This document shows positions 16,915 to 42,691 of a stretch of DNA of 64,000 nucleotides, in pieces (within the stretch, counting starts at the first letter, position 1; the number at the start of each line of letters is the position of its first letter). This stretch comes from Firmicutes bacterium UBA3738. Lineage in GTDB: Bacteria > Bacillota > Clostridia > Peptostreptococcales > Anaerovoracaceae. The notes beneath the pieces were generated by a model. It was not told the DNA's origin. It searched no databases and saw only the letters and a program-made list of their open reading frames with translations. The stretch is from the NCBI GenBank assembly GCA_002372505.1, contig DFGY01000062.1, forward strand, positions 28,322 to 92,321. Direction: 5' to 3'. The translations under genes and the position numbers were made by a program.

Positions 16915-16978
16915 ATTATTTTTCCTTTCTTGTTGCTATTGGATCATCTTTTCTATGATTGAATTATACAAATACAAA

Positions 16979-16995
16979 GCTCAATTTTTTGAGCA
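16979..16995. promoter_or_regulatory. Operator palindrome site 1 (GCTCAA-N4-TTGAGCA), 10 nt upstream of a TATAAT facing the 140-aa gene
   Basis: Minus strand reads TGCTCAAAAAATTGAGC-TTTGTATTTG-TATAAT. About 35 nt are shared with site 3. Confidence 0.7.
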
Positions 16996-16996
16996 T

Positions 16997-20192: not shown

Positions 20193-20239
20193 ATGAGATA
20201 CCTCCTTTCGTAATTTCTGATTCAATTATATCTATGCGA

Positions 20240-20257
20240 TGCTCAAAAAATTGAGCA
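20240..20257. promoter_or_regulatory. Operator palindrome site 2 (TGCTCAAAAAATTGAGCA), 10 nt upstream of a TATAAT facing the minus-strand four-gene operon
   Basis: Minus strand reads TGCTCAATTTTTTGAGC-ATCGCATAGA-TATAAT, then the RBS and the ATG at 20192. Confidence 0.7.
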
Positions 20258-20361
20258 TTGATATCTTTTTTGGGAGATTATTATTAAATTTTTTGAAACG
20301 GCGGCATCAAAGCACATATTTCGCATATCGCTTAATAAAAGTGCAGGAACTGCTGGATTTA

Positions 20362-21540: not shown

Positions 21541-22776
21541 ATGAAAATGAAAGATAAATGGTTCGAACGAGGTGGATTTCTTTATGATATAACGAAGGAG
21601 TATGGGCGGTTAAGGAAAAAGGACATCAAGGACATCATAGATAATCCAAATAATAATAAATCTGATCTTGATTTTTATGAAATCCTTTTTCTTAATAACC
21701 TTGATAATGTCGCCAAAAATTTTATTACTCGTAGAATCCCCAAAAATGTTAACTCTGTGTCTATTTTTCATACGTGCTTTAATTGGAAGAGTCAAAATAA
21801 TAATGAAAAGAAATTACCTATTATTGATGAATTAAAATCATTTGCAAACACAAACTTTATATATAAACTTCCGGGTGATTGGGATACGGATAGATTGTTG
21901 AGATATTCTTTTCGATGGGATGCTGCACCTAATTATTGGCCACATGTTGAACAACTGCGTTATTCAATTTGTGAAATTAAGAAAAACTATCCACAATATA
22001 ATTATAATAATTGGAATGCAGTTGCAACAAAATCAAGCAGCGCAGAAAAATGGATTCTAAAGGGCAATAATAAAGACACTAGTATGGAAATAGAACTCTC
22101 CTCAGATATATGTACCGGCAAATCTATTGTGGCCGATATTAGTATTATCCCTAGCATGACAAAAAATATTGGACCGAAAAAATTAAAGGAATACATATCT
22201 GATAATGTCAACAAGTTTTATTATCTTGAACCTTTTCTTAATGTGATGTACACATGTGGAAATATGACAACAATACCAAATATAAAAGGATCTAATAAAG
22301 GCGGAGGCAATGATCGCTGGGACGCAAAACTACAAAATATTAAAGACTTTATTGTGGAAGGCAAAGGGAAAAAAATAGGAATAACTTTATACGAAATCTA
22401 CAATAAGAAAAACGAACCCTGGAAACAATACGTCATCGAGCATTATATGAACGACTATGTAAACAAAGACTGGAATGTAAAAAATATTCAATCACCAGAG
22501 GTTGTGTTACAGAAAGATGAAGAACCATCAGCTCGCGGAAACGAAGAAACCTTTTATATAAACGCTGCTAAACTCATCATCCAGCGTGGTTACCGTATAT
22601 ACTATCAATACGAACGAGATAACGAGGGAAAAATCAAATATAAAGATGACAAGCCAGTCAGAAACAAAGACCTCTTCAATGAGGATCTATCTTTCATATG
22701 CAAAGCCAAAGATGAATTGCAAGAAGCATTTAAAGCAGTCGGGATTCCGGAAAACAAACTAGATATAATAGAATAA
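21541..22776 (+). CDS. Hypothetical protein (411 aa), markedly AT-rich gene
   Basis: The ORF has an AAAGGGA RBS. The first 60 nt hold 20/60 G+C by hand count. N/K/I/Y-rich with no recognisable motif. Confidence 0.65.
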   Translation: MKMKDKWFERGGFLYDITKEYGRLRKKDIKDIIDNPNNNKSDLDFYEILFLNNLDNVAKNFITRRIPKNVNSVSIFHTCFNWKSQNNNEKKLPIIDELKSFANTNFIYKLPGDWDTDRLLRYSFRWDAAPNYWPHVEQLRYSICEIKKNYPQYNYNNWNAVATKSSSAEKWILKGNNKDTSMEIELSSDICTGKSIVADISIIPSMTKNIGPKKLKEYISDNVNKFYYLEPFLNVMYTCGNMTTIPNIKGSNKGGGNDRWDAKLQNIKDFIVEGKGKKIGITLYEIYNKKNEPWKQYVIEHYMNDYVNKDWNVKNIQSPEVVLQKDEEPSARGNEETFYINAAKLIIQRGYRIYYQYERDNEGKIKYKDDKPVRNKDLFNEDLSFICKAKDELQEAFKAVGIPENKLDIIE

Positions 22777-22777
22777 C

Positions 22778-22806
22778 CGGTGGTCACGTAGCTTGCATGA
22801 CCACCG
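22778..22806. terminator. Bidirectional terminator hairpin between convergent genes
   Basis: CGGTGGTCA-11 nt-TGACCACCG, a perfect 9-bp stem, between the stop at 22776 (+) and the stop at 22839 (-). Confidence 0.6.
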
Positions 22807-22838
22807 ATTAGAGAGCACAGAGTATCCTTTGAAAACTC

Positions 22839-23993
22839 TTACTTTTTCCCCTCTTTCATAACCCCATACATCTCAGCCATCTGTTTGATCCTGTTTTGTA
22901 TTTCTTCCCTGACTTCCTCAGGTTCCAGGACTTCCATCTTTTCTGCATGCTGAAGAGCGAAGTTTATCATTCCGTAAGGAGAACACAACACTTGGACCAG
23001 ATCGTAGTTCTTGTCGTTCTTATCAGGTCCGAGATATTCGTACTTGTCACCAAAAGCGGCGAACAAAAAATTGTATTCAGGCTCGATGGATTTCCCGTAC
23101 TGATCTTTTTTACTTAGTACTCTTAGCGTCATGTACTGCGGCTTATCGTAAGACATACCAAGATGTGTAAGTGTATATTCCGAATCCCAATGCTGAGGCA
23201 TATTTTCGACTTCTCTCTTAGGTATCCGTTTCGATTCTGTTTTGCTTACATCCGACATAAGATCCACGCGCAGTATATATGTGTTCTTGTATTTTTCGTT
23301 TGCTGCCAGCAGATAGTATTTCCCATCATTGGCCACAATATAGTACGGACTGGCAATCCTTTCATAATTACCCGCAGGAGCCAGTTTTCTTTCACGTGTG
23401 TACCCGTTGAATCTATATTTGATCTGGACATTTTCATCTATAGCCTGTTGTATCGTCCTGAGGTTGTCTCTCAGCTGCTGTATGTCATATTTCGGGGTCT
23501 CATATATCTTGCAGACATTACTGGCGCTTGCTTTGTAGTGTTTAGAAGCGAATTTTTCTTCAAGTGTCTTTATCAGTTTATCCGCTCTTTCCGGTTCCAT
23601 GGTACGAGAGAAGTTTATGGCTTCTACCATACTGCTGATATCTTCATGAGAAAACTCGGGATTATAATACAGATTACTCACTTGAAGATAATCTTTTTCA
23701 AATTCTTCTGTATCACCAGCTTCCCCGTACACAGCTTTGTAATCATCAAAAACGATTCGCCAGTCATCGTCCGGAAGAGGTATATCATTCTCATCCAGAT
23801 TCATTGCATCTGCAAGATTAACAAGAAATGTATGCACCGTAGTCCGGTTGCCCAGGTTAATATTCTTTCCTTCGAAATACTCTCTTATATCCTTTAGATT
23901 GATTTTGTGATCCGGATCCGGATCCGTATTTTTCTTAAGATACTCCAGAAACATAATAGTGCGTCTGGTCTGATTTATCTTTTCCCCTTTCAT
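22839..23993 (-). CDS. HTH + WYL-domain transcriptional regulator (BrxR/CapW/PafBC-like architecture)
   Basis: N-terminal winged-helix-like region (RRTIMFLEYLKKNT...LKDIREYF). Central WYL-like core (ASPYYIVANDGKYYLLAANEKYKNTYILRVDLMSDV). Strong RBS GGGAGGA. Divergent from the AAA+ gene and shares operator site 3. Confidence 0.6.
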   Translation of the reverse strand: MKGEKINQTRRTIMFLEYLKKNTDPDPDHKINLKDIREYFEGKNINLGNRTTVHTFLVNLADAMNLDENDIPLPDDDWRIVFDDYKAVYGEAGDTEEFEKDYLQVSNLYYNPEFSHEDISSMVEAINFSRTMEPERADKLIKTLEEKFASKHYKASASNVCKIYETPKYDIQQLRDNLRTIQQAIDENVQIKYRFNGYTRERKLAPAGNYERIASPYYIVANDGKYYLLAANEKYKNTYILRVDLMSDVSKTESKRIPKREVENMPQHWDSEYTLTHLGMSYDKPQYMTLRVLSKKDQYGKSIEPEYNFLFAAFGDKYEYLGPDKNDKNYDLVQVLCSPYGMINFALQHAEKMEVLEPEEVREEIQNRIKQMAEMYGVMKEGKK

Positions 23994-24054
23994 AATGATC
24001 CTCCCTGAAACAAAGGCTTGTGGATTTTTCGCCTCTTTATATTATATCATGTAC

Positions 24055-24071
24055 GCTCAAAAAATTGAGCA
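24055..24071. promoter_or_regulatory. Operator palindrome site 3 (GCTCAAAAAATTGAGCA) in the divergent WYL / AAA+ promoter region
   Basis: Plus direction reads TTGAGC-ATTGTATTTG-TATCAT. Minus direction reads TTGAGC-GTACATGA-TATAAT. Confidence 0.7.
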
Positions 24072-24127
24072 TTGTATTTGTATCATTATAGCATAATCTA
24101 CATTTCAAACAATCAGCGGAGGGAAAA

Positions 24128-26179
24128 ATGATATTAAAAAAAATTGAATTTGAAATAGCCAGCAAGGAAATATCACAAGCTGTATCCGGCAGATTCGATA
24201 ACGACTATTCAAAGCGTGTAGAATACATCCGTTTGCTGGGAAGTCTGAATGAGCAGCTGATGAAATCATTCAAAGGATCCGGTAATACTTTTTTTGCGGC
24301 GCTGACTAAAGGAGTGGATAACAGGATGTCTGCCATTTTAGCTTATGACATCAAAACCCACACTGAACAGGAATGCATATCGATCATTTCAAAAGTTATA
24401 GGCAAAGCCAAGATACTTTCCTGCCGTGAAATCACGATCACGGACTTTTCAGCGAAGCTGGGAGAGGTAGAAGGTATTCCAACAAACTCCATTATTCACA
24501 CACTTGGTCTGGACATATATGCCACTGCTTCCCTTTTTCATAGTCCTGCGTATGAAATATCTGAAGACATCAAGGACAAGAAAAGATACCCTAAAGAAAA
24601 GTGTCTTATGGAAGCGAAAAAAATCATGGCATCAAAAAGTTTTTTGGATGAAATAAGCCGGATCTATTCAAGGAAAAACACAAGGAAATACTACGGCCAC
24701 CCTGTGCACTATTACATTTCTGCCGGCTCCTGCGGAGCTGCAAAAGATATCACTGATATTCTAATTACAGCACTTCTGCACAACAACAGACTTCCCGGGG
24801 GCCGAGTCACAACAGTCAGCAACATTACTGATAAAGCATCGAAAGAAGTCAACTTCAAAAACATATTTCCGTCATGCCGTGGCGGCACCGTGATCGTAGA
24901 TCTTTCAGCGGAATACGAGATAAACAACTACGCAACAGGATATTTATCAATTGCAAAGGAACTGGGTAATCAGCTCGGCAAATACGGAAATGATACCCTG
25001 TTCATTTTCGTCGACATATCCGGCAGCTCAGTGATACGCGGCGAGACTCTGACAGGGATCCTGGCAAACGGAGATATAATTGAGATCGAAGAGGGCTACG
25101 GCGACTACCGGCAGGCAGTTTCATATCTCCGTGATCTGGCGCAAAGAAGCGAATTCAGTCAGTACGCCGACGATGATCTGCAAACTTATCTTCCCGAAAA
25201 AGAATCATATAATGTTTCTGATATTTTTTTCGCTTACGAGAGATGGTACGGCAAGGGGCTCAAAACTCATATTTATCCTGCTTATGCCGAAATAGATACA
25301 TATCATATCGAGGCCGAAAAACCGAAGAGCAGACCCTATGACAAACTGATGGAAATGATCGGGCTCGATGATATAAAAAAGACCATTGACCGGGTCATAG
25401 ATTCATCAAAGATCCAGACTATACGGCATGACATGGGATTATCGTCCGTCGTTACCCTTCCCCATATGATGTTCTACGGCAATCCCGGCTCTGCGAAAAC
25501 CAGCGTTGCCAGGCTGATGGCTCAGATTCTCAAAGAAGAAGGGGTTCTAAAAAGCGGCCATCTCGTCGAATGTTCCCGAAGCGACTTGGTCGGAAAGTAT
25601 GTGGGATGGACCGCTCAAATAGTAGAAGACAAATTCAAATCTGCCAAAGGTGGTATACTGTTCATAGACGAGGCTTATTCCCTTGCCGATGGCAGCAATA
25701 CTTACGGACAGGAAGCAATCAATATGATAGTTCAGCTGATGGAGAACTACAGAAACGATGTTCTGGTCGTCTTTGCAGGATATCCGGAGAAAATGAAAGA
25801 CTTCATCCGCACCAACGAAGGTCTGAAGAGCAGGATCGCCTTTCATCTGCATTTTAAAGATTATGACCCTGAGGAGATGGTCAGCATACTCAAGCTGATG
25901 GCCAAAGAAAAGGAATTGAATCTCACTGCAGGAGCACTAAATAAATGCAGATCCGTTTTCGAAGAAGTCTGCTGTCTCTCTGATTTTGGCAATGGAAGAT
26001 ACGCCCGGAATCTCCTAGAACAGGCTCAGATGAATCAAGCGGAAAGGCTCTTTCGGATCGGCGAACCAAAAGAGATTACAAAAGAAGATATCAAGTTGAT
26101 AAAAGCATGCGACATAGAATCCGTGAAGCAGATGGGCAATGAACCTGAAAAAATCAAAAAAATTGGATTCAGTATATAA
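24128..26179 (+). CDS. AAA+ ATPase (SpoVK/CbbX-type C-terminal module) with a long N-terminal region holding a degenerate second NTPase-like module
   Basis: Walker A GNPGSAKTS and Walker B GGILFIDEAYSL in the C-terminal module. The N-terminal YYISAGSCGAAKD...GGTVIVDL looks like a decayed P-loop/Walker B pair. Confidence 0.8.
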   Translation: MILKKIEFEIASKEISQAVSGRFDNDYSKRVEYIRLLGSLNEQLMKSFKGSGNTFFAALTKGVDNRMSAILAYDIKTHTEQECISIISKVIGKAKILSCREITITDFSAKLGEVEGIPTNSIIHTLGLDIYATASLFHSPAYEISEDIKDKKRYPKEKCLMEAKKIMASKSFLDEISRIYSRKNTRKYYGHPVHYYISAGSCGAAKDITDILITALLHNNRLPGGRVTTVSNITDKASKEVNFKNIFPSCRGGTVIVDLSAEYEINNYATGYLSIAKELGNQLGKYGNDTLFIFVDISGSSVIRGETLTGILANGDIIEIEEGYGDYRQAVSYLRDLAQRSEFSQYADDDLQTYLPEKESYNVSDIFFAYERWYGKGLKTHIYPAYAEIDTYHIEAEKPKSRPYDKLMEMIGLDDIKKTIDRVIDSSKIQTIRHDMGLSSVVTLPHMMFYGNPGSAKTSVARLMAQILKEEGVLKSGHLVECSRSDLVGKYVGWTAQIVEDKFKSAKGGILFIDEAYSLADGSNTYGQEAINMIVQLMENYRNDVLVVFAGYPEKMKDFIRTNEGLKSRIAFHLHFKDYDPEEMVSILKLMAKEKELNLTAGALNKCRSVFEEVCCLSDFGNGRYARNLLEQAQMNQAERLFRIGEPKEITKEDIKLIKACDIESVKQMGNEPEKIKKIGFSI

Positions 26180-26181
26180 AA

Positions 26182-26199
26182 TGCTCAATTTTTTGGGCA
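26182..26199. promoter_or_regulatory. Operator palindrome site 4 (TGCTCAATTTTTTGGGCA, one arm mismatch), 10 nt upstream of a TATAAT
   Basis: TTGGGC-ATACGGTCGC-TATAAT, then RBS AAAGGAG and the ATG at 26265. Confidence 0.6.
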
Positions 26200-26264
26200 T
26201 ACGGTCGCTATAATTAACATTGAAAGTTGATTTCATAGCATTCTTAAATAAAGGAGCATTCGAA

Positions 26265-26642
26265 ATGAGTAACAAAAGAAAATACGAACCTATCGAGACT
26301 TATCGCTACAATAATGTTTGTAAGAATTGCAAAAACATCTATTATTATTTTAAAGACGAAGAATATGCTATAATTAAATGCGAGCATAATGTGGCGACCT
26401 GCCTGCTCAACGGAGCCATGCAATTTGTTTATCGGAAACCCGGAGAAGAACTAATCAAATCTGAAGTGCCCCTGCATATTTGTAAGAATTGCAAAAACAC
26501 ATATTATGATTTAGAAGACGACGGATATGTTCTTAAATGCAGGCATAATATGGCAGGCTGCCTGTCCAACGATGCCACGCATTTTGTTTACCGGAAACCC
26601 GGAGAGGAAATCGCCAAATCCGATGTGATTCTATCCGAATAA
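26265..26642 (+). CDS. Small Cys-rich protein with two tandem zinc-ribbon-like repeats (125 aa)
   Basis: Internal duplication: CKNCKNIYYYFKDEEYAIIKCEHNVATCL..FVYRKPGEE versus CKNCKNTYYDLEDDGYVLKCRHNMAGCL..FVYRKPGEE. The ATG at 26265 with RBS is preferred over the TTG at 26220. Confidence 0.7.
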   Translation: MSNKRKYEPIETYRYNNVCKNCKNIYYYFKDEEYAIIKCEHNVATCLLNGAMQFVYRKPGEELIKSEVPLHICKNCKNTYYDLEDDGYVLKCRHNMAGCLSNDATHFVYRKPGEEIAKSDVILSE

Positions 26643-26681
26643 TTCGTATATTGTTATAAATGATAAGGACAGGGAATTGAA

Positions 26682-26960
26682 ATGTTTGATAATAAAGTAA
26701 TCAAGAAAATAATAGCTTCAGGATGTGATGAGTCTTTTATAGAGGATGTGCATTCTTTATTCGATATTGTTCGATGTGATGACTGCCATACCCAAAAAGA
26801 AAAAGAACTCATCGTTTACAATTGTAAAAGCACTGTGGAAAGAATCAATGCTGTGGCAGAAGAGAAAGGCTTTGAAAGGTTTTATACAAAAGATGAACAC
26901 ATCGATTTTGAGAAAGATTTAAGAGATTATGTATTGGGCGTAGTCAAGCAAATGATGTAA
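26682..26960 (+). CDS. Hypothetical small protein (92 aa)
   Basis: ORF in the same operon; contains CDDCH and further Cys residues. No family recognised. Confidence 0.55.
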   Translation: MFDNKVIKKIIASGCDESFIEDVHSLFDIVRCDDCHTQKEKELIVYNCKSTVERINAVAEEKGFERFYTKDEHIDFEKDLRDYVLGVVKQMM

Positions 26961-26981
26961 TAATTCAGGAGATCAAATGAT

Positions 26982-27614
26982 ATGGAGAAAAAGATTCTGG
27001 CTTTGACAAAAGACGGAAAGTTAGCATTTTGCTCAGCAAAACCAGATGGTAGATGCAAAGACAGGTGCGATCACGCAGACCACCAAAAGTTTTATCAGAC
27101 AGCTCAGGATTTTATAACGCAATTAGGCATGAACGGGATCAAGCTTGAGAAAGATGATGAAATAAAGAGAGCTGTGTATTTAAAACGGAATATTGAAAAT
27201 CTGCACTTTCCAACAGATTATCATAAGAAATTGAAAGAAGATATCAGTTGGATAAAATATATCATTACTAACAATCCGGCACAGGAAAAGAACTCGAGAA
27301 TAATAAAAAACTATTATGAGTTCATTTACAAGTCTGATGCACTATTTGCAGTAATAGGCTATAGCGCATCAGGTATTAAAGATAAGCAAGAACAATATAA
27401 GCAGATAGATAGCAAGCGAAGAGATTTTCATAATGCCACACTTGGAGCTTTTGCTTCTATGGTTGCAGATTGCAAGCAAAAAATCGGTATAGATATTTAT
27501 GACAAAGATTATAAAGAGATATTAAAAGCACAGAGTGAATACGGAGGGGAACGAACCAGGGTCGCCAACTATCTGTATGATGTCATCAAATATTATAATG
27601 ATGTTGACGATTAG
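26982..27614 (+). CDS. Hypothetical protein (210 aa) with an N-terminal Cys/His cluster
   Basis: CSAKPDGRCKDRCDHADH cluster near the N-terminus. RBS AGGAGA upstream. Confidence 0.6.
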   Translation: MEKKILALTKDGKLAFCSAKPDGRCKDRCDHADHQKFYQTAQDFITQLGMNGIKLEKDDEIKRAVYLKRNIENLHFPTDYHKKLKEDISWIKYIITNNPAQEKNSRIIKNYYEFIYKSDALFAVIGYSASGIKDKQEQYKQIDSKRRDFHNATLGAFASMVADCKQKIGIDIYDKDYKEILKAQSEYGGERTRVANYLYDVIKYYNDVDD

Positions 27615-27647
27615 CTTTATTCAATCTTTTTTTAATCCATCTTGAAT

Positions 27648-27785
27648 GAAAAACAGGGGTAATTAGGGGGTATATTATGGATTTCCGCCAAAATGAAAAA
27701 TCCTCGGAACGCTTGAATTTCCAAGGATTTTTTTATGGTCGGAGAGACAGGATTTGAACCTGCGGCCACCTGACCCCCAGTCAGG
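27648..27785 (-). repeat. att-like copy C: the 3' 50 nt of tRNA-Pro (27736-27785, identical) plus a copy of its terminator/flank
   Basis: 27736-27785 is identical to 44395-44444. 27648-27735 is near-identical to 44307-44394. Confidence 0.9.
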
Positions 27786-27821
27786 GTGAGACCGTCGTGA
27801 TTTCAATGCTTTCAGCGATTG

Positions 27822-27856
27822 TTTCCACCACGATTTCCACCACAGTTTCCACCACT
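27822..27856. repeat. Three direct repeats TTTCCACCAC (period 12-13), arm-type-site-like
   Basis: Copies at 27822-27831, 27834-27843 and 27847-27856, 36 nt right of core copy C. Confidence 0.8.
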
Positions 27857-28014
27857 AAATTTTTCCAAATGTATAAATATGCGCGATTCCGGATAGTGCA
27901 AAGCGATCTCTACATTAGCGATTTTAATAATATGCAGTAAACATCAGCTTACCAATTACACTAAGCATTCCATTTCTATTTCAAATACATATGAGTCGCT
28001 CATCAATATCTATA

Positions 28015-29640
28015 TTAAAATCTAAAGGGCTCTTTTTTACGACCAGCCGCAAAATCGATTTCTTCGAAAAGAGCGCGACATTTTTCATATTGCGATAGCT
28101 TCAGTTGTTCTATAACATCATCGACATATTTTTCACCATGTTCGAGTTTTATCAATCCCTTAATATACTCTGCTGCCTCATGATAGATTTTTCTGCTTTT
28201 TTCTCCAGTAAGCGAAGAAAAGAAACTATTTGTAAAAAACTTTTTCAATTCAGGCTCATACTTCTCTGCAAGAAAATCTACATTTCTTATTATTTCAAAT
28301 CGACTCCCTTTCTCATTAAGCAAATTGAACAGCTTTTCTTTTTCGTCAGTGAATCTATACAACGTTACCAGATGGCCAAGATTTTTCGTGAGCTTTTCTA
28401 TTCTTTTTTCACATTCTGATAACCAGCCTGCATCCTTTAAATGTTGCAGCGGAACTGTATCATTATTGTTCAGATAATCATATAAATAGTACTCTTTCAA
28501 GATTTCTTTATCACCACATTTTTCATACAACTTATTTAACAAGAATGGAATGTACTGTTTGTTGTATAGTGGTTTTTTATTTATTTCTTTCGATATGGCA
28601 CAATAAAGCCCTTTGACATCAGGTGCACTCTCTATGCAAAAGCAGATATACTCTTTGTACTTTGCATTTTTGATCATAGTACTTACCATGTCATCCATTT
28701 CGGGCTTTTCAATAATGCAAATTGCAATAAGCACATTTGATTTTGGGCACGTATTTCGAATCCCCATTGATTTCAAACGAGCGAACCGATCATTCAAACC
28801 GGTTACATATTGTTTCTTCTGTTCTTTGGATAAATGCTTTGATAAATGCTCTGCGATCCATCGATAATCATCATACACCGCCAGATCATCTTTCATGAAA
28901 AGTTCATTCAAATCGCTTCTATATTCTTTATTTCTCCATAGAGATGATATTTTTCTCTTTTCCACATCGCTTAGCATAGGCTGAGAATAGTCTTTCCATT
29001 CACTGTCATTATCTCTCTGTAGAAGGATCAAGCGAGAATTCAGTTTGTCTAATAGAACACTGGCTCCATTTTTATTGCCGATAAATTCTGAATACCTATG
29101 CTTCAGATATTTGTTGAAAGTCTCTTTTTTGTCTTTCATCAATTCAACACGAAGAATCATCCTTAATTCTTCCGGTGTCATATTGTCTAGAAAATCATCC
29201 AGTAGCTCATCATAATACAAAATGCCAAATCCTTCATTCAACAATTTTGTCAGAGAACTATTACAAATCCTGCTCTTATCCAGTGAATATTCCATTTCTC
29301 TTTCTTCTTCATAATAGTCATGGTTGGTCTCCCTGCAATCATCATAGTCTTCATAATAGTCAGCCTTTTCCGGAAAGGCGGCCATCCATAATGCTGCCAT
29401 ATGCTTGCACATATTTCCGCTTTCCGCATACGGACAATCACAACTGGATTTAAGTGGTTCATTTATTTTAATTGTCACTGAATAGGGCTTGTCTTCGCTT
29501 CCCTCAACCAGTCCTTTGTATTCATAAGTATCTGTTTGCTCTATTTCCAGCACAAAATCGCGAGAATAATAATCATATCCTCTGGCTACGATTCTTTCAT
29601 CAAAGTAACTCATATAGCTATTGACTTTTTCTTTGGTCAT
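28015..29640 (-). CDS. SWIM zinc-finger domain protein (541 aa)
   Basis: N-terminal CDCPYAESGNMCKHMAALW (CxCxnCxH SWIM signature). The rest is helical and K/E/Y-rich. RBS GGAGAG. Confidence 0.75.
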   Translation of the reverse strand: MTKEKVNSYMSYFDERIVARGYDYYSRDFVLEIEQTDTYEYKGLVEGSEDKPYSVTIKINEPLKSSCDCPYAESGNMCKHMAALWMAAFPEKADYYEDYDDCRETNHDYYEEEREMEYSLDKSRICNSSLTKLLNEGFGILYYDELLDDFLDNMTPEELRMILRVELMKDKKETFNKYLKHRYSEFIGNKNGASVLLDKLNSRLILLQRDNDSEWKDYSQPMLSDVEKRKISSLWRNKEYRSDLNELFMKDDLAVYDDYRWIAEHLSKHLSKEQKKQYVTGLNDRFARLKSMGIRNTCPKSNVLIAICIIEKPEMDDMVSTMIKNAKYKEYICFCIESAPDVKGLYCAISKEINKKPLYNKQYIPFLLNKLYEKCGDKEILKEYYLYDYLNNNDTVPLQHLKDAGWLSECEKRIEKLTKNLGHLVTLYRFTDEKEKLFNLLNEKGSRFEIIRNVDFLAEKYEPELKKFFTNSFFSSLTGEKSRKIYHEAAEYIKGLIKLEHGEKYVDDVIEQLKLSQYEKCRALFEEIDFAAGRKKEPFRF

Positions 29641-29664
29641 TTTTTCTCTCCAGAAGATTTGTTT

Positions 29665-30972
29665 TCAATCTTTCAAGCATCCTACAGGAATCACTTTTAC
29701 TCCATTTTCTGTTGTATAAGCCATTGGAGCATTCCCACATATTATGATAAGGAGCGATGGCTCTCGATATTCTATCCCCGGATGCGCTTCATTCAACCTG
29801 GCCTTTTCATTATGTTCACGTATAACCTTAGTAAATTTTATCAAGTTCTCTTCCGCTGCCGGCACAGCATTTGATCCTGTTTTTATTTCAATCAAGGCAT
29901 AACGCCCATCGTTTAACTGCAGTACTGCATCTGCCTCAAGCCCATTGCTGTCGCTATAATGCATCAGTCTGGCATCGTGTGCTTGTGCAAAAACAAGAAG
30001 GTCCCTAAGCACCATATTTTCGAAGGCATGACCAAACAAATCAAGATCATTATTAAAATAGTCCGGAGATACACCCAACGAAGCCAGCGCGATAGACGGA
30101 TCAATGAATATATGCTTCTTTGCAGCTCTAATCGATGTCTTTGAACGTATTTGTGGTGTCCATGCATCGATATCCTTTAATACGAATAATTTTTCAAGAG
30201 CTGTAATGTATGACGAAATTGTGACATCCGACATGTCATGATTTGACCGAACATCCGAATATATATTCTTTCTCTTCGCAAGTGTTGCCATATTTCTGGC
30301 ATAAGACCAAATAATCGTCCTAGCCCATTCCTGATTTCGTTTCACATCATCGATCGTACTAATATCCTTTAGATATATTTGTTTAAAATAATCTCTTGCA
30401 ATTTCAAGCTTTGACGCATCCGAAGAGAGCGCCAGGCATCTTGGCCAGCCACCCCTGCAGACCGCAAAAAACAACTCCTCTAACTTTGTATTACACTTCT
30501 GCCCATCAATAATAAAGTCTTCATCGTCAAACAGTTTCTTCAACGAAATCGAGCCATTCGATTCTCCTGTCTCATACAAGGTCATTGGATACATCATAAT
30601 ACTTGTAATCCTTCCGGTGCCTGTATGCGGTGTATCCACATCTTTGCTGGTTGAACCTGTAAGATAGTATTCCCCAACAGACTCCGGCTCATCATCACAA
30701 GCTTTTCTTATCGCGCCCCATATTTTAGGAGCATCTTGCCATTCATCAAAAAGAATTGGCTTTTCATTATTCAAAAATAGTTTGGGCGAGGTGTTTGCAA
30801 CAGCCAGATAGCCTTCTCTCCTTTCTTCGTCCTGAAACTCTATAATTGTCTTGCAGCGTTCCTGTGAAGTACGCGTCTTGCCGCATCCTTTTGGCCCAAT
30901 TATATTTATCGCATTAAACGCTTCTTTTTTCTTATCGATCTCTGAATCTACGATTCTTCGTATATAGTCCAT
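29665..30972 (-). CDS. AAA_14-type ATPase with a C-terminal DUF4143 (PD-(D/E)xK-like) domain
   Basis: Walker A GPKGCGKTR, Walker B ILFDEWQD, C-terminal DGRYALIEIKTGSN (D..ExK-like). Confidence 0.8.
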   Translation of the reverse strand: MDYIRRIVDSEIDKKKEAFNAINIIGPKGCGKTRTSQERCKTIIEFQDEERREGYLAVANTSPKLFLNNEKPILFDEWQDAPKIWGAIRKACDDEPESVGEYYLTGSTSKDVDTPHTGTGRITSIMMYPMTLYETGESNGSISLKKLFDDEDFIIDGQKCNTKLEELFFAVCRGGWPRCLALSSDASKLEIARDYFKQIYLKDISTIDDVKRNQEWARTIIWSYARNMATLAKRKNIYSDVRSNHDMSDVTISSYITALEKLFVLKDIDAWTPQIRSKTSIRAAKKHIFIDPSIALASLGVSPDYFNNDLDLFGHAFENMVLRDLLVFAQAHDARLMHYSDSNGLEADAVLQLNDGRYALIEIKTGSNAVPAAEENLIKFTKVIREHNEKARLNEAHPGIEYREPSLLIIICGNAPMAYTTENGVKVIPVGCLKD

Positions 30973-31035
30973 GCACTTTCATTCTCCCTTTCATATGTCT
31001 ATTATTCCACAGACAAGGCGAAACATCAAGTTGTG

Positions 31036-31106
31036 TTTTGTGTTTTTCGACTATTTTGTTTTGTGTTTTTCGACTATTTTGTTTTGCGTTTTTCGACTAT
31101 TTTATT
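31036..31106. repeat. Three tandem 23-bp direct repeats (TGTGTTTTTCGACTATTTTGTTT) upstream of the ATPase gene
   Basis: CGACTATTTT occurs at 31048, 31071 and 31094 (period 23). Confidence 0.85.
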
Positions 31107-31150
31107 TTGCAAGTTGTCAAAGTAGGTTTTCCAAGGATTATTGATGGCCT

Positions 31151-31252
31151 AAGAGACAGGATTGGCAGCCTGCGGCCACCTGACCCCCAGTCAGTACTTA
31201 GTTGCTTATTTTTCAATGGCTATACGGTTTATGGCAACCTATATGGCAACCT
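31151..31252 (-). repeat. att-like copy E: degenerate tRNA-Pro 3' fragment plus type-2 arm (TATGGCAACC x2)
   Basis: AAGAGACAGGATTGGCAGCCTGCGGCCACCTGACCCCCAGTCAG, followed by TACTTAGTTGCTTATTTTTCAATGGCTATACGGTTTATGGCAACCTATATGGCAACC. Confidence 0.8.
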
Positions 31253-31428
31253 AATAATTGACGGAATTATCAAATGCTTATTATGTTGATTATTATTGAA
31301 TTGACAGCATCCAAAATCAAATGATTCAAATTCAACCTATGCAAAATACACAAAGAGAACAAAAGGACATGGTACAAACAGTATTTCTATAAAGTGCGTT
31401 TACAAAAAAGTAAAATAGCATGACAGAA

Positions 31429-31464
31429 AAATGAGGCGGAAGTTTTTTCGGATCCGCCTCATTT
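31429..31464 (-). terminator. Rho-independent terminator of the membrane-protein gene
   Basis: AAATGAGGCGGA / TCCGCCTCATTT, a 12-bp stem, followed on the minus strand by a TTTTTCTG tract. Confidence 0.7.
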
Positions 31465-31524
31465 GCTTTTAAACTTAATAGTCGTTAATATGTCTCGCTG
31501 CAATGCGTCCTGTGCGGGTGCTGC

Positions 31525-32166
31525 TTACAGCATATTCTTTGTCTGACTCAGCACCTTAAGGAAAAGGATGTAAGCGATCACAGATACAACTGCGATAACG
31601 ATGGCGATTATACCTGCTATTACCACCATTTCTTTTGCACTTATGAATGCCAGTACGACTCCCAGCAGAATGGATACGACATACAGCGCCGTGATTAATT
31701 TTACCGTGCTGGAAGCCAGTTTTTCAACATGTTCATCTCCTACTCTCTTTGCCAGAAAACCGCAGCCCTGGATGATATATATGGTTACCATAAGGTTGCA
31801 GAAATTGCTAAGTACGCCGGTTATATCTTTTGCCATCTCGTTATTTCCAAAGAATCCGGCTACAAACGCAACTACCAGTCCGCCTATCAGAAAAGCCATT
31901 GCTTTTTTGAACTCGGGTTCTTCCTTGGATGCTCTGCTTATACCGACGACCTGGAATATGAAAGCTAAAACCACAGCAGCCAAGCCTAGTATCGCTACCA
32001 ATCCTATTCCGGCCATTCCGCCTTCTGTAATATTCGTTGCACCTCCGTTAGTAGCGGATATTACAATGATCACGCTTGAAACTGCTGCCAGAATAATCGC
32101 ACATATACTCAGGATCTCACCGATGTAGATCAATCCGACGCCTTTTTTTGCACTATTCAATTCCAT
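31525..32166 (-). CDS. Polytopic membrane protein (about 6 TM), unknown function
   Basis: Hydrophobic throughout. The ATG at 32166 with RBS AAGGAAG is preferred over the GTG at 32175. Confidence 0.7.
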   Translation of the reverse strand: MELNSAKKGVGLIYIGEILSICAIILAAVSSVIIVISATNGGATNITEGGMAGIGLVAILGLAAVVLAFIFQVVGISRASKEEPEFKKAMAFLIGGLVVAFVAGFFGNNEMAKDITGVLSNFCNLMVTIYIIQGCGFLAKRVGDEHVEKLASSTVKLITALYVVSILLGVVLAFISAKEMVVIAGIIAIVIAVVSVIAYILFLKVLSQTKNML

Positions 32167-32611
32167 TTTTACCACTTCCTTTTTTTTTCGTTATTTTCGA
32201 ATCCTTGATGCAGGCATTTAACGATGCCTTCAAACTCGTTTGATAGTTATATTTTATAATTCCACTAGTATTTTAACACATATTCTCTTCATTAGCCACT
32301 TCTTGTTGTTAGACGCTGCGGGAAAAAGGGAAATTTATCAAGTTAACACCAAAAGAAAAAAATGAAAAGAGCATTGACGGAATGAAGATATACACTGAAG
32401 AACAGGAGGTGCGTATGAATCGGTTGCACAACTTGCAGCTGCTTTTTCTTCGGTGGGGATCAAATGCCGGGATATCCACCATCCCAAACCACTCTTTTCG
32501 TCAAGAAACAGTAAAAAGTCAATTGCCCGAGTCATTTGACAATAAGAGAATTGCATTGATACAATATATTTTATATATGAATTAACAACAGCAGCGGAGG
32601 AGTTTTACGAT

Positions 32612-35600
32612 ATGAATGACACGAAAAATATAAGATGGCACTTGATACTGGTCGCCTTTGGTATTTTGCTGGGAGTGATGATCACGCTTCTTGGCGGTAT
32701 CACAGGATCTGTTGCTCATGCCGAAGATGGTGACAAAGCTGACCGCACGATCATCTATTATAATGATGGCGCTTCTTCCGAAGAAACCAATATGGCGTGC
32801 AGTGACATGCTGATGGAGGCGATGGCTGCCAAATTTGACAGCAAAAAGATCCGCTTTATTGTGATGACAGGAGGCTCCTTGAAATGGCATCTGGATCCCA
32901 GATATCTACGCGACAAGAATGGCGAAGCGGATAAGATCGATGCGATCAGCACCGAATACAATCAGGTCTGGGAGCTGTTCGGTGCCACTGATACCAGCGA
33001 AGGTTACATGAAATTGATCGATGGTGACGGCGTAACGGGCGTTGAAGTCAAGTCCGAAGATGAGCTGATGAATAATCCGAACACGTTAAAAACCTTCATC
33101 AATTTTGCGAAAAATTATGCTCCGGCTGAAAAATATGATCTTATCATGCTCGACCACGGCAGCGGTCCGGGACATGGTTATGGTTTGGATGACCATGATA
33201 CGGTAAATCCGAATAAAAAATTGCATGTCTATGAAATGCGTCAGGCTATTTCCGAGTGTGATGTGATTCAGCAAGGCGGGAAATTCGATATGATCTTTCT
33301 TGAGTGCTGCATGAACGGAAATTTTGAGACACTTCTTGCTCTGCAGGATTATGCGGACTATTTTATAGGCTCTCCTGATGTTGACCCCATAAATTCTGTG
33401 GAATATACGGACGTACTGAACTATCTGAATGAAAATCCTGCCATGGACGCGAAGTTACTTGGCAAAAAAATGGTGGATGTCTTCCATGATTATTTTGAAA
33501 GTCATATGGAGGAGAGATCCCTTGGCAAAGCTGTCCAATTATCCTTGGTTGACACGGCAAAGTTTAAGGATAGCGGGATCCTGAATCGAATGCAGCAAAT
33601 CGCCGAGACGCTGAGATCGGAGGCCGCCGGTAAAAGATTTTATGATGAGATCCGTTCCTCACAGGATGATTACAGAACATATTATAGTTATTTGCAGGAT
33701 ATGAGTACCCTGGCAGAGCAGCTGGGGATCAATATAAAGGAGTCTGATTTTCAGAATCCAGAAATGAAAAACAGTTATACGGATGATGCGATCCAGGTTC
33801 AAAACATATTAGGAGATACGGATGTCATCTATTCTAAATATACTAGCGATTCCAGGAAAGATGATGTGATATTCGGAAGAGACGAACAGGGAAAGATAAC
33901 AGTAAAAGTCGAAAAAAACCCGGCAGGCGGATTGAATATCTTTTTCCCAAACATGCACATGAGCAATATCCCCGCTGAAATAGTGCACTATATTGATGCA
34001 ATGAAGAAACTTGCAGACAAGTTGGCGGAGGATCCTAATGATGATCCTAAGGTCGAGGCTTTTATCACGACCTACAGGCAGGCAGTCATAGATTACGCGC
34101 TGATCTACGAGATCGGTACAGCTGTTTCCAATATCGTGGACAGCGAAGGTTATGACGGAACCGTTGATTTGAACAAAATCAGGGAATACTTCGAAGCAGA
34201 GGATCAAAAATTAGTGGACCAGGGATTAGAAAGCGAAAATCAATGGGGTTCGATCTCACATATCATCGATGAAAGTGATAGAAAAGATTCAGGGTGGCTT
34301 AACGAGATCATCGAGATCCAGAAGAAAGAAGTAATAAACCCAAAGAACGTTGCGATCCGGAAGACAGACAAGGATTATCTCATCGATATTACGAACACAC
34401 CTCAGAAGATCATCGGCGTTCCTGAGCTTCGTTTAAGCGCAAAGATATCGCATCAGTCTTCTGAAGAAGGATTTGATTTCTTGTATCCAGATCCACTGAT
34501 CGTATATACAGGCGAGCTGGCAGCGGATGCTATGCAGGACGTCAGCTCTTTTGAAGAATTTATTGGCGGAAATCATTCTGCTTACAGGGTCCCGCTGCAT
34601 GACGGGCAGTGGTATGCGGTAAAAGATTCTAATGGAAAAATACACCCTGCGAGCATCGCGTCAGATCGGTCGGTTTATGCAGCGTTTAAGTTTAAAGACG
34701 GCACAAATAAAGGTGGAGAGCTGCATTTTGACGCACAGGGGAAGGCAAAACATATTTATCTCGATGGTGATACAAAGCCCATCGACCTTGAGATCTACAA
34801 AGATCCCGTGAAAGTGACGCTGATGAATCACTCCAGTAATGCGGGAATGGTTTCCGGGGAATTTGAGATCAGCGGGACAAATTCCAGATTGGTAAGAGCA
34901 CCTTATAAAGATCTGAATATCAAATCTGTTGATGCCAAGCTGTATATCTGTGATATTTACGGAGTGGGACACGAGATCGCGCTTCCGGATTTCAGAACAA
35001 AGGCAACCATAACGACCGCGCCAGTCGGTAAGACCGGGCTGACTTACACAGGTAAGGCTCAGGCACTTGTCAAAGCAGGAAAAGCCAAAGGCGGCACGAT
35101 GCAGTACGCGCTTGGTAAAAATGCGAAGGACGCGCCGACTTCCGGATGGAGCGCATCCATACCGAAAGGAACAAAGGCCGGAACATATTACGTCTGGTAC
35201 AAGGTCGCAGGCGATAAGAACCATATCGATACTGTACCGAAATGTATCATAGTAAAGATCTCAAAAGCCATCACTAAAGTAACAGTCAATGCAAAGGCTG
35301 TCACTGCAAATACAGTAGCCAAGATGGTGGCAAAGGGCAAAAATGCCATGACCATTTCCTGGTCGGTGGTAAAGAATGCCGACGGATACGATGTGTTCTT
35401 CGCACGCTGCAACCACCACGGCAAGAAAATAAAAATGAAAAAGGTAAAGACCTTTAACAGCAACACGAAAACGAGCTACACAAAGAAAGGTCTTAAGAAA
35501 GGCGCATCTTACAAGGCTAAAGTCAGAGCCTTTGTCAAGGTAAAGGGCAAGAAAAAGTACATCATGACCAGCCCGGCAATGCACGCATTCGCAGGTAACG

Positions 35601-35887
35601 GAACAAAGAGATACACCAACGCTAAGAGCGTCAGTGTGAAGAAAAACAGCATCACACTGAAAAAGGGCAAGACCTACAAAATCAAAGCCACAGTGAAAAA
35701 AGCAAATAAAAACAAGAAACTCATGCCCGCGAAGCATATGAAGAAACTGCGCTACAGTAGCATGAACAAGAAAATAGCAACAGTTTCCAAGACCGGCATA
35801 ATAAAAGCCAAAGCCAAAGGCAAATGCATCATCTACGTTTACGCCCACAACGGCATCGGCAAACTGGTTAACGTAACAGTCAAGTAA
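32612..35887 (+). CDS. Secreted clostripain-like (peptidase C11) protein with a C-terminal lysine-rich Fn3-like + Big_2 module (1091 aa)
   Basis: Signal/TM segment. LDHGSGPGHGYGLDD (catalytic His region) and FLECCMNGN (catalytic Cys region). C-terminal MTISWSVVKNADGYDVFF and ATVSKTGIIKAKAKGKCIIYV. Confidence 0.8.
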   Translation: MNDTKNIRWHLILVAFGILLGVMITLLGGITGSVAHAEDGDKADRTIIYYNDGASSEETNMACSDMLMEAMAAKFDSKKIRFIVMTGGSLKWHLDPRYLRDKNGEADKIDAISTEYNQVWELFGATDTSEGYMKLIDGDGVTGVEVKSEDELMNNPNTLKTFINFAKNYAPAEKYDLIMLDHGSGPGHGYGLDDHDTVNPNKKLHVYEMRQAISECDVIQQGGKFDMIFLECCMNGNFETLLALQDYADYFIGSPDVDPINSVEYTDVLNYLNENPAMDAKLLGKKMVDVFHDYFESHMEERSLGKAVQLSLVDTAKFKDSGILNRMQQIAETLRSEAAGKRFYDEIRSSQDDYRTYYSYLQDMSTLAEQLGINIKESDFQNPEMKNSYTDDAIQVQNILGDTDVIYSKYTSDSRKDDVIFGRDEQGKITVKVEKNPAGGLNIFFPNMHMSNIPAEIVHYIDAMKKLADKLAEDPNDDPKVEAFITTYRQAVIDYALIYEIGTAVSNIVDSEGYDGTVDLNKIREYFEAEDQKLVDQGLESENQWGSISHIIDESDRKDSGWLNEIIEIQKKEVINPKNVAIRKTDKDYLIDITNTPQKIIGVPELRLSAKISHQSSEEGFDFLYPDPLIVYTGELAADAMQDVSSFEEFIGGNHSAYRVPLHDGQWYAVKDSNGKIHPASIASDRSVYAAFKFKDGTNKGGELHFDAQGKAKHIYLDGDTKPIDLEIYKDPVKVTLMNHSSNAGMVSGEFEISGTNSRLVRAPYKDLNIKSVDAKLYICDIYGVGHEIALPDFRTKATITTAPVGKTGLTYTGKAQALVKAGKAKGGTMQYALGKNAKDAPTSGWSASIPKGTKAGTYYVWYKVAGDKNHIDTVPKCIIVKISKAITKVTVNAKAVTANTVAKMVAKGKNAMTISWSVVKNADGYDVFFARCNHHGKKIKMKKVKTFNSNTKTSYTKKGLKKGASYKAKVRAFVKVKGKKKYIMTSPAMHAFAGNGTKRYTNAKSVSVKKNSITLKKGKTYKIKATVKKANKNKKLMPAKHMKKLRYSSMNKKIATVSKTGIIKAKAKGKCIIYVYAHNGIGKLVNVTVK

Positions 35888-35936
35888 TCAAAGGATGTAA
35901 TCAGTTGATTCAGAAATTAAAACTCAAAATCTAAAA

Positions 35937-35956
35937 CAGGACGCTTTCGCGTCCTG
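35937..35956 (+). terminator. Terminator of the clostripain-like gene
   Basis: CAGGACGC-TTTC-GCGTCCTG followed by CTTT. Confidence 0.65.
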
Positions 35957-35966
35957 CTTTAGATAT

Positions 35967-36145
35967 AGGGGGGTATATTATGGATTTCCGTCAAAAAGAA
36001 AAAACCTCGGAATGCTTGAAATTCCAAGGATTTTTTGATTGTCGGAGAGACAGGATTTGAACCTGCGGCCACCTGACCCCCAGTCAGTACTTGGCTGCTT
36101 ATTTTTCAATGGCTGCACGGTTTATGGCAACCTATATGGCAACCC
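35967..36145 (-). repeat. att-like copy B: terminator-flank copy + tRNA-Pro 3' 47 nt (36041-36087) + type-2 arm (TATGGCAACC at 36123 and 36135)
   Basis: Direct alignment to 44320-44441 and to the arms of copies D and E. Confidence 0.9.
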
Positions 36146-36187
36146 GTGTTTTCAGTCGAACAATACTCAAAACCTTGTCATATATAT

Positions 36188-36772
36188 TTATAAATTAATT
36201 CCGGTCAAGTCAGATATTTCGCTCTTATCCCAGTTTTCATTTTCCCAAAAGAAAAATTCTTCTTTTCTCTTCTTAAATATCCTGAACGGTTCATCTGTAT
36301 TATCATAAATATGCAGTACATCGCAAACCTTTATTAACTCTGGAATAAGCGCAAGTGACTTTTGATACCTGCTGCGAATCTTGTCTTCGGGAACACCATG
36401 ACCTCCGGATTGCTCTCTTGATTCCACACGGAAAACATTAATGCTGGGATCTGCAGTCAACACAAATATACAACGTACAAAATATCCTTGTTCCTTTGCT
36501 CTTTTGATAAGTTCTAAATTCCGTTCTGTAGACAAGACAGTTTCAAATGTAAAATCGATTCCCTGCTTTAGGGAATCCTCTCTTAATGATTCAGCAATCT
36601 TAGCAGCCTCAATATCGCTGCAATGTGTTGTTTTCTTTATTTCATCAGCATTAATATATGGCTCAATTATCTTTGCTAATTTAGTGATTGTAGTTTTTCC
36701 GCTTCCGTTGGGTCCGGCAAAAACAATCAACTCTGGACACTTCTGATTATTCGGCATATTTTCTGCTCCCAT
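36188..36772 (-). CDS. Zeta-toxin/PezT-family P-loop kinase
   Basis: Walker A GPNGSGKTT near the N-terminus; about 190 aa; overlaps a small upstream ORF. An alternative ATG lies at 36757. Confidence 0.7.
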   Translation of the reverse strand: MGAENMPNNQKCPELIVFAGPNGSGKTTITKLAKIIEPYINADEIKKTTHCSDIEAAKIAESLREDSLKQGIDFTFETVLSTERNLELIKRAKEQGYFVRCIFVLTADPSINVFRVESREQSGGHGVPEDKIRSRYQKSLALIPELIKVCDVLHIYDNTDEPFRIFKKRKEEFFFWENENWDKSEISDLTGINL

Positions 36773-36938
36773 CCGGGTATTCTAAATACGCCTTCTTTTT
36801 TTCCTTATCGTATCCGGCAATTGGTGCGCCTATGGCTCTTTTAATTTCGTTATCTATCTGAATCGCTTTTTTAAATCTTTCTGTTAGCTCATCATCTGAT
36901 ATTCCACACATGGAATCAAGTTCATTAGATTCATTCAT
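36747..36938 (-). CDS. Small acidic protein, putative cognate antitoxin (63 aa from the ATG at 36938)
   Basis: Overlaps the toxin start. GGAGGG RBS 7 nt before the ATG at 36938; the longest ORF extends to 36971. No family recognised; the call rests on position. Confidence 0.5.
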   Translation of the reverse strand: MNESNELDSMCGISDDELTERFKKAIQIDNEIKRAIGAPIAGYDKEKKKAYLEYPDGSRKYAE

Positions 36939-37051
36939 CTCGTTTCCCTCCATTACTTGATTATATAGCATTTATTTACCCTGCACAATTACTATGATTT
37001 AGAAACAAGCAAAAACCCTTGGAAAAAGTACATTTTTCAACGGTTTTATTC

Positions 37052-37158: not shown

Positions 37159-37200
37159 GCCATGTTTGTGCAGATTGGAATATCCTTATATCAGGAATTG

Positions 37201-40660: not shown

Positions 40661-40749
40661 TTAACCAAAATACCACAAACACAGAGACAACGGATGCCGT
40701 GAAGGCAGCATCCGTCATCATTAATAATGAACACTAATATTTGTTTACT

Positions 40750-42679: not shown

Positions 42680-42691
42680 GACTATCCCTCC

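Follow-up and report, generated by a model that had tools for sequence, protein, structure and literature searches.

A two-tier AAA+ ATPase with a ClpX-like C-terminal motif, encoded in a WYL-linked accessory island beside strain-specific small Cys/His-rich genes

Results

We examined a 64,000-nucleotide stretch of the genome of Firmicutes bacterium UBA3738 (the whole stretch is here called the window) and, within it, a gene for a large AAA+ ATPase followed by three genes for small Cys/His-rich proteins. The ATPase gene (24128 to 26179, plus strand; 683 amino acids), identified from its open reading frame (ORF), Pfam and NCBIfam matches, and an AlphaFold2 model, is divergent from a gene for a WYL-type transcription regulator (22839 to 23993, minus strand; 384 amino acids). 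Downstream on the plus strand lie the genes for a 125-amino-acid protein (Zn125; 26265 to 26642), a 92-amino-acid protein (p92; 26682 to 26960), and a 210-amino-acid protein (p210; 26982 to 27614). An earlier reading of this DNA from its letters (the sequence-only reading) had placed the same four ORFs at these positions, which our analysis confirms, and had set the small proteins with the ATPase as a possible system.

The C-terminal part of the ATPase is an active module (D2; residues ~400 to 670; 25325 to 26137, plus strand) of the CbbX/SpoVK/EccA type with an AAA_lid_6 domain, as indicated by both profile and fold matches. Pfam AAA (PF00004, E value 5e-16) and AAA_lid_6 (PF17866, 1.8e-15) span residues 447 to 663, and the motifs GNPGSAKT (451 to 458) and ILFIDEAY (510 to 517), from which an intact SpoVK/CbbX-type module had been proposed, were recovered there. 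A profile built from 50 family sequences matched CbbX (3syk, E value 1.2e-90) and EccA1 (1e-69) in the Protein Data Bank (PDB). The AlphaFold2 model made with the family alignment had a predicted local distance difference test score (pLDDT) of 85.6 over the whole ATPase; Foldseek searches with this full model returned CbbX (E value 2.4e-22) and, after it, alignments over 560 to 750 columns with the two-ring AAA+ proteins Rix7, p97/Cdc48, Drg1, ClpA, ClpC, and ClpB. Across the 50 sequences, the invariant D2 positions were Walker A and B, the Y491-V492-G493 pore loop, G551-Y552, R569, R624, and R627.

The SpoVK/CbbX/EccA higher-order clade is defined by a sensor-1 GY pair and by retention of the second Arg finger, at sensor 2 (PMC11513918), and the window protein has both: G551-Y552 (FAGYP) for the former and G621-N622-G623-R624 with R627 for the latter, all invariant in the 50 sequences. 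All NCBIfam scores fell under the equivalog cut-offs (TIGR02880 CbbX, 220 versus 459 bits; TIGR02881 SpoVK, 252 versus 423 bits; TIGR03922 EccA, 201 versus 467 bits), and thus the ATPase belongs to the clade yet is none of its three named members. It is the only AAA_lid_6 gene of its genome and 12 relatives have none, so the genome has no separate SpoVK. The ratio of nonsynonymous to synonymous substitution rates (dN/dS) was 0.13 against a 96.5%-identical metagenomic copy in locus L037. We rejected IetAS or another PADLOC system as an identification (IetA, 25 bits, confined to the AAA core; NF042959, 23.6 versus a cut-off of 510), and no protease family, as would be expected of an IetS-type partner, was matched among the neighboring genes scanned.

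Upstream of D2, residues ~151 to 390 (24578 to 25297, plus strand) form a second AAA+ fold, D1, that has lost its catalytic motifs. The sequence-only reading had suspected a decayed P-loop module before the live one, and it was correct because hhalign aligns the Walker and sensor motifs of D1 with those of D2: residues 150 to 392 matched residues 400 to 670 with a probability of 94% (E value 1.4e-7), superposing ISAGSCGAAKD (197 to 207) on the GNPGSAKT Walker A, GGTVIVDL (251 to 258) on the Walker B GGILFIDEAY, and DTLFIFVD on the sensor-1 strand DVLVVFAGY. A model of the N-terminal 400 residues alone was predicted with a pLDDT of 83.4 and a predicted template modeling score of 0.82, and Foldseek with this model returned AAA+ modules only (RFC, TRIP13, p97-D1, Vps4, Rpt, and ClpA/C). 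The invariant columns of D1 (G190, H191, P192, V193, H194, Y195, A199, and A205) include no Walker Lys/Thr and no acidic Walker B residue in any part of the family; the dead Walker A follows the pattern AG[DS]xxAAxD, and the family signature GHPVHY...AGDxxAAxD is present in the window protein. D1 is almost certainly a conserved pseudo-ATPase tier homologous to D2, with a decay that is ancient and shared by the whole family.

The N-terminal 400 residues matched no known family. Within them, residues 1 to 150 (24128 to 24577, plus strand) make up a mixed alpha/beta domain, predicted with a pLDDT mostly between 85 and 95, for which no match to any family or fold was found. The Foldseek alignments extended over ~250 columns, and every target was an AAA+ module; query ranges were not reported, and residues 1 to 150 were therefore probably the unmatched part. 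We presume that this domain binds a client or an adaptor.

At its other end the ATPase has a flexible tail (26138 to 26179, plus strand; pLDDT ~50) that ends in KKIGFSI, with the IGF codons at 26162 to 26170. The full C-terminus reads EKIKKIGFSI, and the last ~25 residues are predicted to be disordered. Although the tail is otherwise variable in sequence and length across the family, the motif [KR]-x-Phi-G-F (where Phi is I, M, L, V, or F) falls within the last 0 to 12 residues, usually 0 to 8, in 31 of 32 locus ATPases and in ~46 of 50 alignment rows, with 0 to 9 residues after it. The corresponding loop of ClpX in the same genome reads GEKVIGFNS. As a control, we inspected five ordinary SpoVK-like AAA_lid_6 proteins (Walker A GxPGTGKT) encoded in four of the same genomes; the tail was absent from all five, whereas family members all carried it, as did two further GNPGTAKT-type proteins.

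Two AAA_lid_6 proteins of ~600 amino acids, which the N-terminal profile did not match in the fetched 3.2-kb pieces, also have this kind of ending (L064, G001:C11:74397-74579; L065, G005:C4:209275-209448). One has an FGF tail (KKFGFA), and the other has FGF ~10 residues before its end (QVFGFAMPKVKNCI); the Walker A of L064 is GNPGTAKT. Proteins with an IGF-type tail may thus make up a larger group than the N-terminally defined family.

The ATPase almost certainly belongs to an uncharacterized two-tier AAA+ family of proteins of ~685 amino acids. Sixty-four clusters share the N-terminal 400 residues (E values down to 1e-90 on residues 1 to 400), their hosts include Lachnospiraceae, Oscillospiraceae/Ruminococcaceae, and Selenomonadaceae of the rumen and gut, and the family was located at 31 genome loci. 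Only 2 of 201 genomes of the window's own order carry the family, which is accessory, horizontally spread, and sporadic. A phage origin was considered and rejected: the family turned up on just two virome contigs, and phage hallmark genes are lacking from the better of them (MT839804, marked UNVERIFIED); plasmid matches were distant and on large secondary replicons. Full-text literature searches found no description of this two-tier family, nor of a ClpP link in the clade.

When the ORFs from 33 loci were clustered, the commonest neighbor of the ATPase gene was a genuine ClpP (PF00574, 2e-77), directly adjacent and on the same strand. There were 17 such pairs in 16 of the 33 loci, separated by -28 to +113 nucleotides (nt) except for one apparently frameshifted copy at 268 nt. 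The order was mostly clpP followed by the ATPase gene, reversed twice in L009, and the adjacency spans Lachnospiraceae and Oscillospiraceae. In the ClpP tree, a separate group (90/89) unites 14 of 16 linked ClpPs, to the exclusion of the copies in tig-clpP-clpX and of the second ClpPs of the same genomes. The ATPase tree contains a 20-member clade that is mostly clpP linked and a 12-member set (96/96) that holds the window protein, in which a WYL gene lies nearby in seven members and clpP in one. Searching the related ATPase loci with all island proteins (tblastn), we found WYL homologues beside the ATPase gene in 10 of 35. The genome of the window has a single clpP, located in tig-clpP-clpX on another contig, and any ClpP partner here would therefore be the housekeeping enzyme.

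The other family-bearing genome of the window's order belongs to the same taxonomic family as the window (L052; G173:C8:54000-73000). There, a WYL gene (596 amino acids) lies beside a minus-strand cluster with two ATPase paralogues, both tailed (RQIGFTA and RRIGFVA). From paralogue 2, the cluster continues with a soluble FtsH-like AAA+M41 protease (447 amino acids), a 267-amino-acid unknown, a ClpP-like protein (189 amino acids; PF00574, 1e-22), a 126-amino-acid unknown, a DSPc-like phosphatase, and paralogue 1. This cluster may be a more elaborate form of the window's module.

Further genes recur around the family. In the clpP-linked clade (L011, L014-L017, L026, L029, L031, and L035), sigma-70-like genes regularly flank the clpP-ATPase pair, with a 261-amino-acid type that has regions 2, 3, and 4 and a ~340-amino-acid type that has region 4 only, and two unknown families of ~300 and ~350 amino acids also recur. 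This arrangement hints that an alternative sigma factor may be controlled by a circuit of regulated proteolysis. Around WYL-linked ATPases (L003-L005 and L002/L033), we found Tpt1/KptA, NUDIX, a LigA-like NAD ligase, Metallophos, Exo_endo_phos, a DUF2779 nuclease, YpsA (SLOG), and cREC_REC, a set with a flavor of nucleic acid repair or conflict. Metallophos directly follows the ATPase gene in several loci and also lies beside an ATPase remnant in L041.

In the window itself, the divergent regulator has winged helix-turn-helix (wHTH), WYL, and WCX domains (Pfam WYL, 3.4e-8; WCX, 1.1e-5; PADLOC WYL, 1.4e-21) and an inverted repeat at its own promoter. This repeat, the candidate operator, is the palindrome GCTCAA-N4-TTGAGC, perfect at 24055 to 24070 in the promoter region between the regulator and ATPase genes; two more perfect copies start at 16979 and 20241. 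A further copy with one mismatch, GCTCAATTTTTTGGGC, stands at 26183 to 26198, 4 nt past the ATPase stop codon, and is followed after 11 nt by TATAAT (26210 to 26215). Thus, the small genes have an operator-bearing promoter of their own, in agreement with the sequence-only reading. No terminator was found between the ATPase and the small genes, the scores of the terminator/promoter scan being not above those of shuffled sequences, and an Rfam scan of 22500 to 28100 gave no match. Outside the window, the operator was found only in L037-L040 and was absent from the loci of diverged relatives.

Three of the operator copies are carried by a 39-nt repeat family (26162 to 26200, 16958 to 16996, and 20220 to 20258) with an upstream extension that is ATTGAATTATA-like. 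The repeat at 26162 overlaps the last ATPase codons (ATT GGA TTC AGT ATA TAA, which is IGFSI*), and therefore the small-gene promoter is partly made of the coding end of the ATPase.

The ATPase gene sits in a low-GC accessory island at a tRNA-Pro hotspot. In L037-L040 and L050, the WYL-ATPase island directly abuts the tRNA-Pro gene (window 27549 to 27785 and 44150 to 44471), and the ~16.5 kb from 27655 to 44150, which consists of cassettes bounded by copies of the tRNA 3' half, is absent, so that the island is there the element nearest the tRNA. Within the operator-linked island, a gene for a 411-amino-acid protein (21541 to 22776, plus strand) has a GC content of 33% and a GC content at third codon positions (GC3) of 31%, far under its neighbors and similar in composition to p92 and p210; it is probably another recently acquired ORFan cassette.

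Homologues of the three small proteins were sought among 5.8 and 1.84 billion proteins. Zn125 starts at an ATG behind AAAGGAG, although a 140-amino-acid reading from a TTG also exists, and consists of two 4-Cys units that arose by a recent internal duplication. Their tandem duplication, as had been proposed, was recovered by Tandem Repeats Finder (period 159, 1.8 copies, 81% matches; arms 26314 to 26468 and 26476 to 26627); the proposed x18-19 spacing was not, as each unit reads CKNCKN-x13/12-KC-x6-C, that is, C-x2-C-x16/15-C-x6-C. Homologues fell into three clusters only: a 95% copy, a 72-amino-acid single-unit version, and a fragment fused to a rimM ORF. The dN/dS of Zn125 was 0.41 against L037, on 11 changes, and the omega of unit 1 against unit 2 was ~0.9, with all Cys kept. 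The YgiT/MqsA-type zinc finger model TIGR03831 scored 18.2 bits (E value 0.0023), below its cut-off of 20.2 bits. On a metagenome contig (ERZ28614093; L042:930-1091), a 162-nt piece that is 92.6% identical to one Zn125 unit (window 26352 to 26513) closes a rimM-like ORF beside rpsP at its 3' end. Either the assembly is chimeric there or the piece is a mobile Zn-unit fragment.

The other two proteins are ORFans. p92 (GC content, 33%) contains four Cys (C15, C32, C35, and C48), in keeping with its description as Cys-containing, and had only a 99%-identical match among the 1.84 billion representatives. p210 (GC content, 35.5%) does have the cluster reported for it, located in its N-terminal part and with a C-x-H rather than the C-H first read: C-x7-C-x3-C-x-H-x2-H. 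It had one 95% cluster only; its frame is intact in L050, with a ratio of nonsynonymous to synonymous polymorphism of 0.64 on 15 changes. The GC3 of both genes was 31 to 35%, versus 47% for the ATPase gene. No Pfam, NCBIfam, PHROGs, or PADLOC model scored above threshold on any of the three small proteins, PDB sequence searches gave chance-level matches only, and p210 and p92 showed no similarity to genes of like size that follow the ATPase gene in L001 and L002. By their Cys/His patterns the small proteins are candidates for a zinc-ribbon or 4-Cys metal site.

We found no homologue of Zn125, p92, or p210 in 35 loci encoding ATPase relatives (tblastn). Moreover, the segment from 26683 to 27548, which covers p92 and most of p210, is missing in contigs from ~96.5%-identical strains: the match of the four contigs L037-L040 to the window runs from 22820, breaks off at 26682, and resumes at 27549. 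The junction retains the ribosome-binding site of p92 and the last ~22 codons of p210, which indicates a deletion in these contigs and not an insertion in the window. In L041, which has diverged by ~22% in DNA, the Zn gene, of the single-unit type, is intact; next to it are a degenerate operator and the remnant of an ATPase gene, which covers residues 523 to 545 and 623 to 674 and has an in-frame stop. The small ORFs stay open across strains, with weak selection signals. The small genes are probably real and fast evolving, but they are dispensable, and they are almost certainly strain-specific ORFan cargo and not conserved partners of the ATPase family. The idea that small zinc-ribbon proteins form a unit with the remodeler, which presupposed that the small ORFs are conserved, was checked by co-occurrence and fails on this point.

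Discussion

The reading that we favor, and that we put a little above an even chance as a whole, is that the ATPase is a WYL-controlled accessory two-tier unfoldase that feeds ClpP, with the small genes as cargo. The WYL regulator would bind the four palindromes and thereby co-control a PcfJ-like operon, a HipA-like gene pair, its own gene with that of the ATPase, and the small-gene unit. The ATPase gene is divergent from a WYL gene whose operator recurs at four promoters, and its expression is thus probably induced together with that of the other island genes; if the regulator behaves like BrxR, CapW, DriD, and PafBC, it might respond to DNA damage or to an invader. The ATPase would then assemble into a two-tier hexamer in which D1 is the scaffold and D2 the motor with a KYVG pore loop, and residues 1 to 150 would choose the client. 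The IGF tails would insert in the hydrophobic pockets of ClpP, to which the client would be passed and by which it would be degraded. That partner would be the housekeeping copy here and a dedicated paralogue from the same operon in about half of the relatives. The small proteins could be clients, adaptors, inhibitors, or unrelated cargo, and the family does not require them.

Docking of the tail on ClpP is proposed because the tail motif is conserved together with clpP adjacency in relatives, and we give it about an even chance of being right, or somewhat better. Several observations weigh against this reading. The docking step is drawn from gene adjacency and a three-residue motif, no clpP adjoins the ATPase gene in the window's island or in most of its clade, and to our knowledge all ClpP partners so far described present IGF/LGF on an internal loop rather than on a C-terminal tail. 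Moreover, the Zn125 and ATPase genes are neighbors in two lineages ~22% apart at the DNA level, which could reflect some functional tie between them. CbbX reactivates Rubisco, SpoVK acts on MurG, and EccA acts on substrates of the type VII secretion system. For their clade as a whole, a published survey found no peptidase fusion or association, unlike in other classical AAA+ groups, and proposed dedicated chaperone roles (PMC11513918).

Much of this would suit a protease-free remodeler that pulls one dedicated client, with the IGF tail serving in autoinhibition, partner binding, or oligomer contacts and with clpP adjacency reflecting co-regulation. The D2 module is closest to CbbX, and the published view of the clade and the lack of a nearby clpP in the window and most of its clade also fit. 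We nevertheless judge this explanation unlikely, since the operon-tight pairing with clpP occurs in two gene orders, in both Lachnospiraceae and Oscillospiraceae, and with a clpP lineage of its own; the tail resembles the docking loop of ClpX and is missing from ordinary SpoVK-like paralogues; and the G173 cluster holds two peptidase genes. Somewhat less unlikely, in our view, is that the ATPase acts, as effector or as helper, in a WYL-controlled island for defense against phages or plasmids, or in an anti-defense set on a mobile-element remnant; the ORFans, the HipA-like kinase, and the remaining genes linked to the operator would then be interchangeable modules of that conflict system. WYL regulators recur beside the window's clade, genes of typically accessory or conflict character (DUF2779 nuclease, Metallophos, NUDIX, Tpt1, LigA-like, YodL, and DUF4262) lie around the relatives, and the tRNA-Pro hotspot and sporadic distribution agree with it, but PADLOC returned only weak generic AAA+ matches such as IetA, no IetS-type partner was seen among the genes scanned, and no known defense effector is consistently linked. 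Such a role is in any case compatible with ClpP coupling rather than an alternative to it.

A four-gene system, in which the three Cys/His proteins would be adaptors, clients, or regulators of the ATPase, appears very improbable. The genes are adjacent on one strand, have the operator in common with no terminator detected between the ATPase and Zn125, and the ATPase-Zn125 adjacency recurs, in decayed form, in L041. Yet none of the three has a homologue in the 35 related loci and all are ORFans, p92 and p210 differ from the ATPase in GC3 and have been deleted in L037-L040 while the ATPase remains under purifying selection, and the Zn gene of L041 is intact where the ATPase is a remnant. For p92 and p210, the four-gene system is largely refuted.

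If the tail does dock, the bacterial partners of ClpP (ClpX, ClpA, ClpC, ClpE, and a few others) would be joined by one that comes from another AAA+ lineage and docks in another geometry, and the published view of SpoVK/CbbX/EccA-type ATPases as protease-free chaperones would have to be revised. Gut and rumen Clostridia would also have a new kind of regulated-proteolysis module, a mobile unfoldase under WYL control that uses the protease of its host, and this module might serve in conflicts with phages or plasmids. A more specific version of the favored reading, which falls somewhat short of an even chance, is that this is the first ClpP-activating unfoldase from the SpoVK/CbbX/EccA clade, which combines proteasome-style docking with a ClpX-style motif, and that it is WYL switched, horizontally acquired, and able to commandeer the housekeeping ClpP against a specific client, with the duplicated Zn protein as a possible plug-in adaptor or decoy. 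Either way, the small Cys-rich genes, as lineage-specific cargo, define no system; the ATPase family is the interesting object, and the window holds a clpP-less, WYL-linked example of it.

Comparison with known systems

The regulatory arrangement resembles that of the WYL modules BrxR, CapW, PafBC, and DriD, with which it shares a wHTH-WYL-WCX regulator encoded divergently from the target gene and the recurrence of an inverted-repeat operator at several promoters. The genes that would be regulated here, however, are not those of bacteriophage exclusion (BREX), of cyclic-oligonucleotide-based anti-phage signaling (CBASS), or of the actinobacterial or Caulobacter damage regulons.

Among AAA+ proteins, the red-type Rubisco activase CbbX (PDB 3SYK/3SYL/3ZUH; TIGR02880) is of the same subtype as D2, with AAA plus AAA_lid_6, GY at sensor 1, two Arg fingers, and an aromatic pore loop. 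It is a single tier of ~290 to 310 amino acids, whereas the window ATPase adds a 150-amino-acid N-terminal domain and a dead tier, and its host is a rumen Clostridia metagenome-assembled genome with no Rubisco gene in the region studied. CbbX is not known to bear a docking tail. SpoVK and EccA have the same clade signatures and likewise a variable N-terminal region that recruits the client (PMC11513918). The window ATPase differs in that it has no tetratricopeptide repeat or beta-helix N-terminal domain, and its family adjoins clpP although their clade has been reported without peptidase partners.

Two stacked AAA+ tiers behind an N-terminal domain are found likewise in the type II Clp/Hsp100 and p97-like unfoldases (ClpA, ClpC, Cdc48/p97, and Rix7). 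In ClpA and ClpC, an IGL/LGF element of the D2 tier mediates delivery to ClpP. In the window family, by contrast, the tiers derive from a CbbX-like module and not from Clp AAA_2 modules, D1 is dead family-wide, and the IGF-type motif is at the extreme C-terminus rather than on a loop as in ClpX, ClpA, ClpC, and ClpE. PAN/Rpt, Mpa/ARC, and Cdc48, the proteasomal ATPases of the classical AAA+ clade, engage a self-compartmentalized peptidase by means of a short C-terminal HbYX or GQYL tail that enters pockets on its surface, and by analogy the same mode of docking may apply to this ATPase. Their partner is the 20S proteasome and their motif HbYX/GQYL, whereas here the motif is a ClpX-like IGF and the linked peptidase is ClpP.

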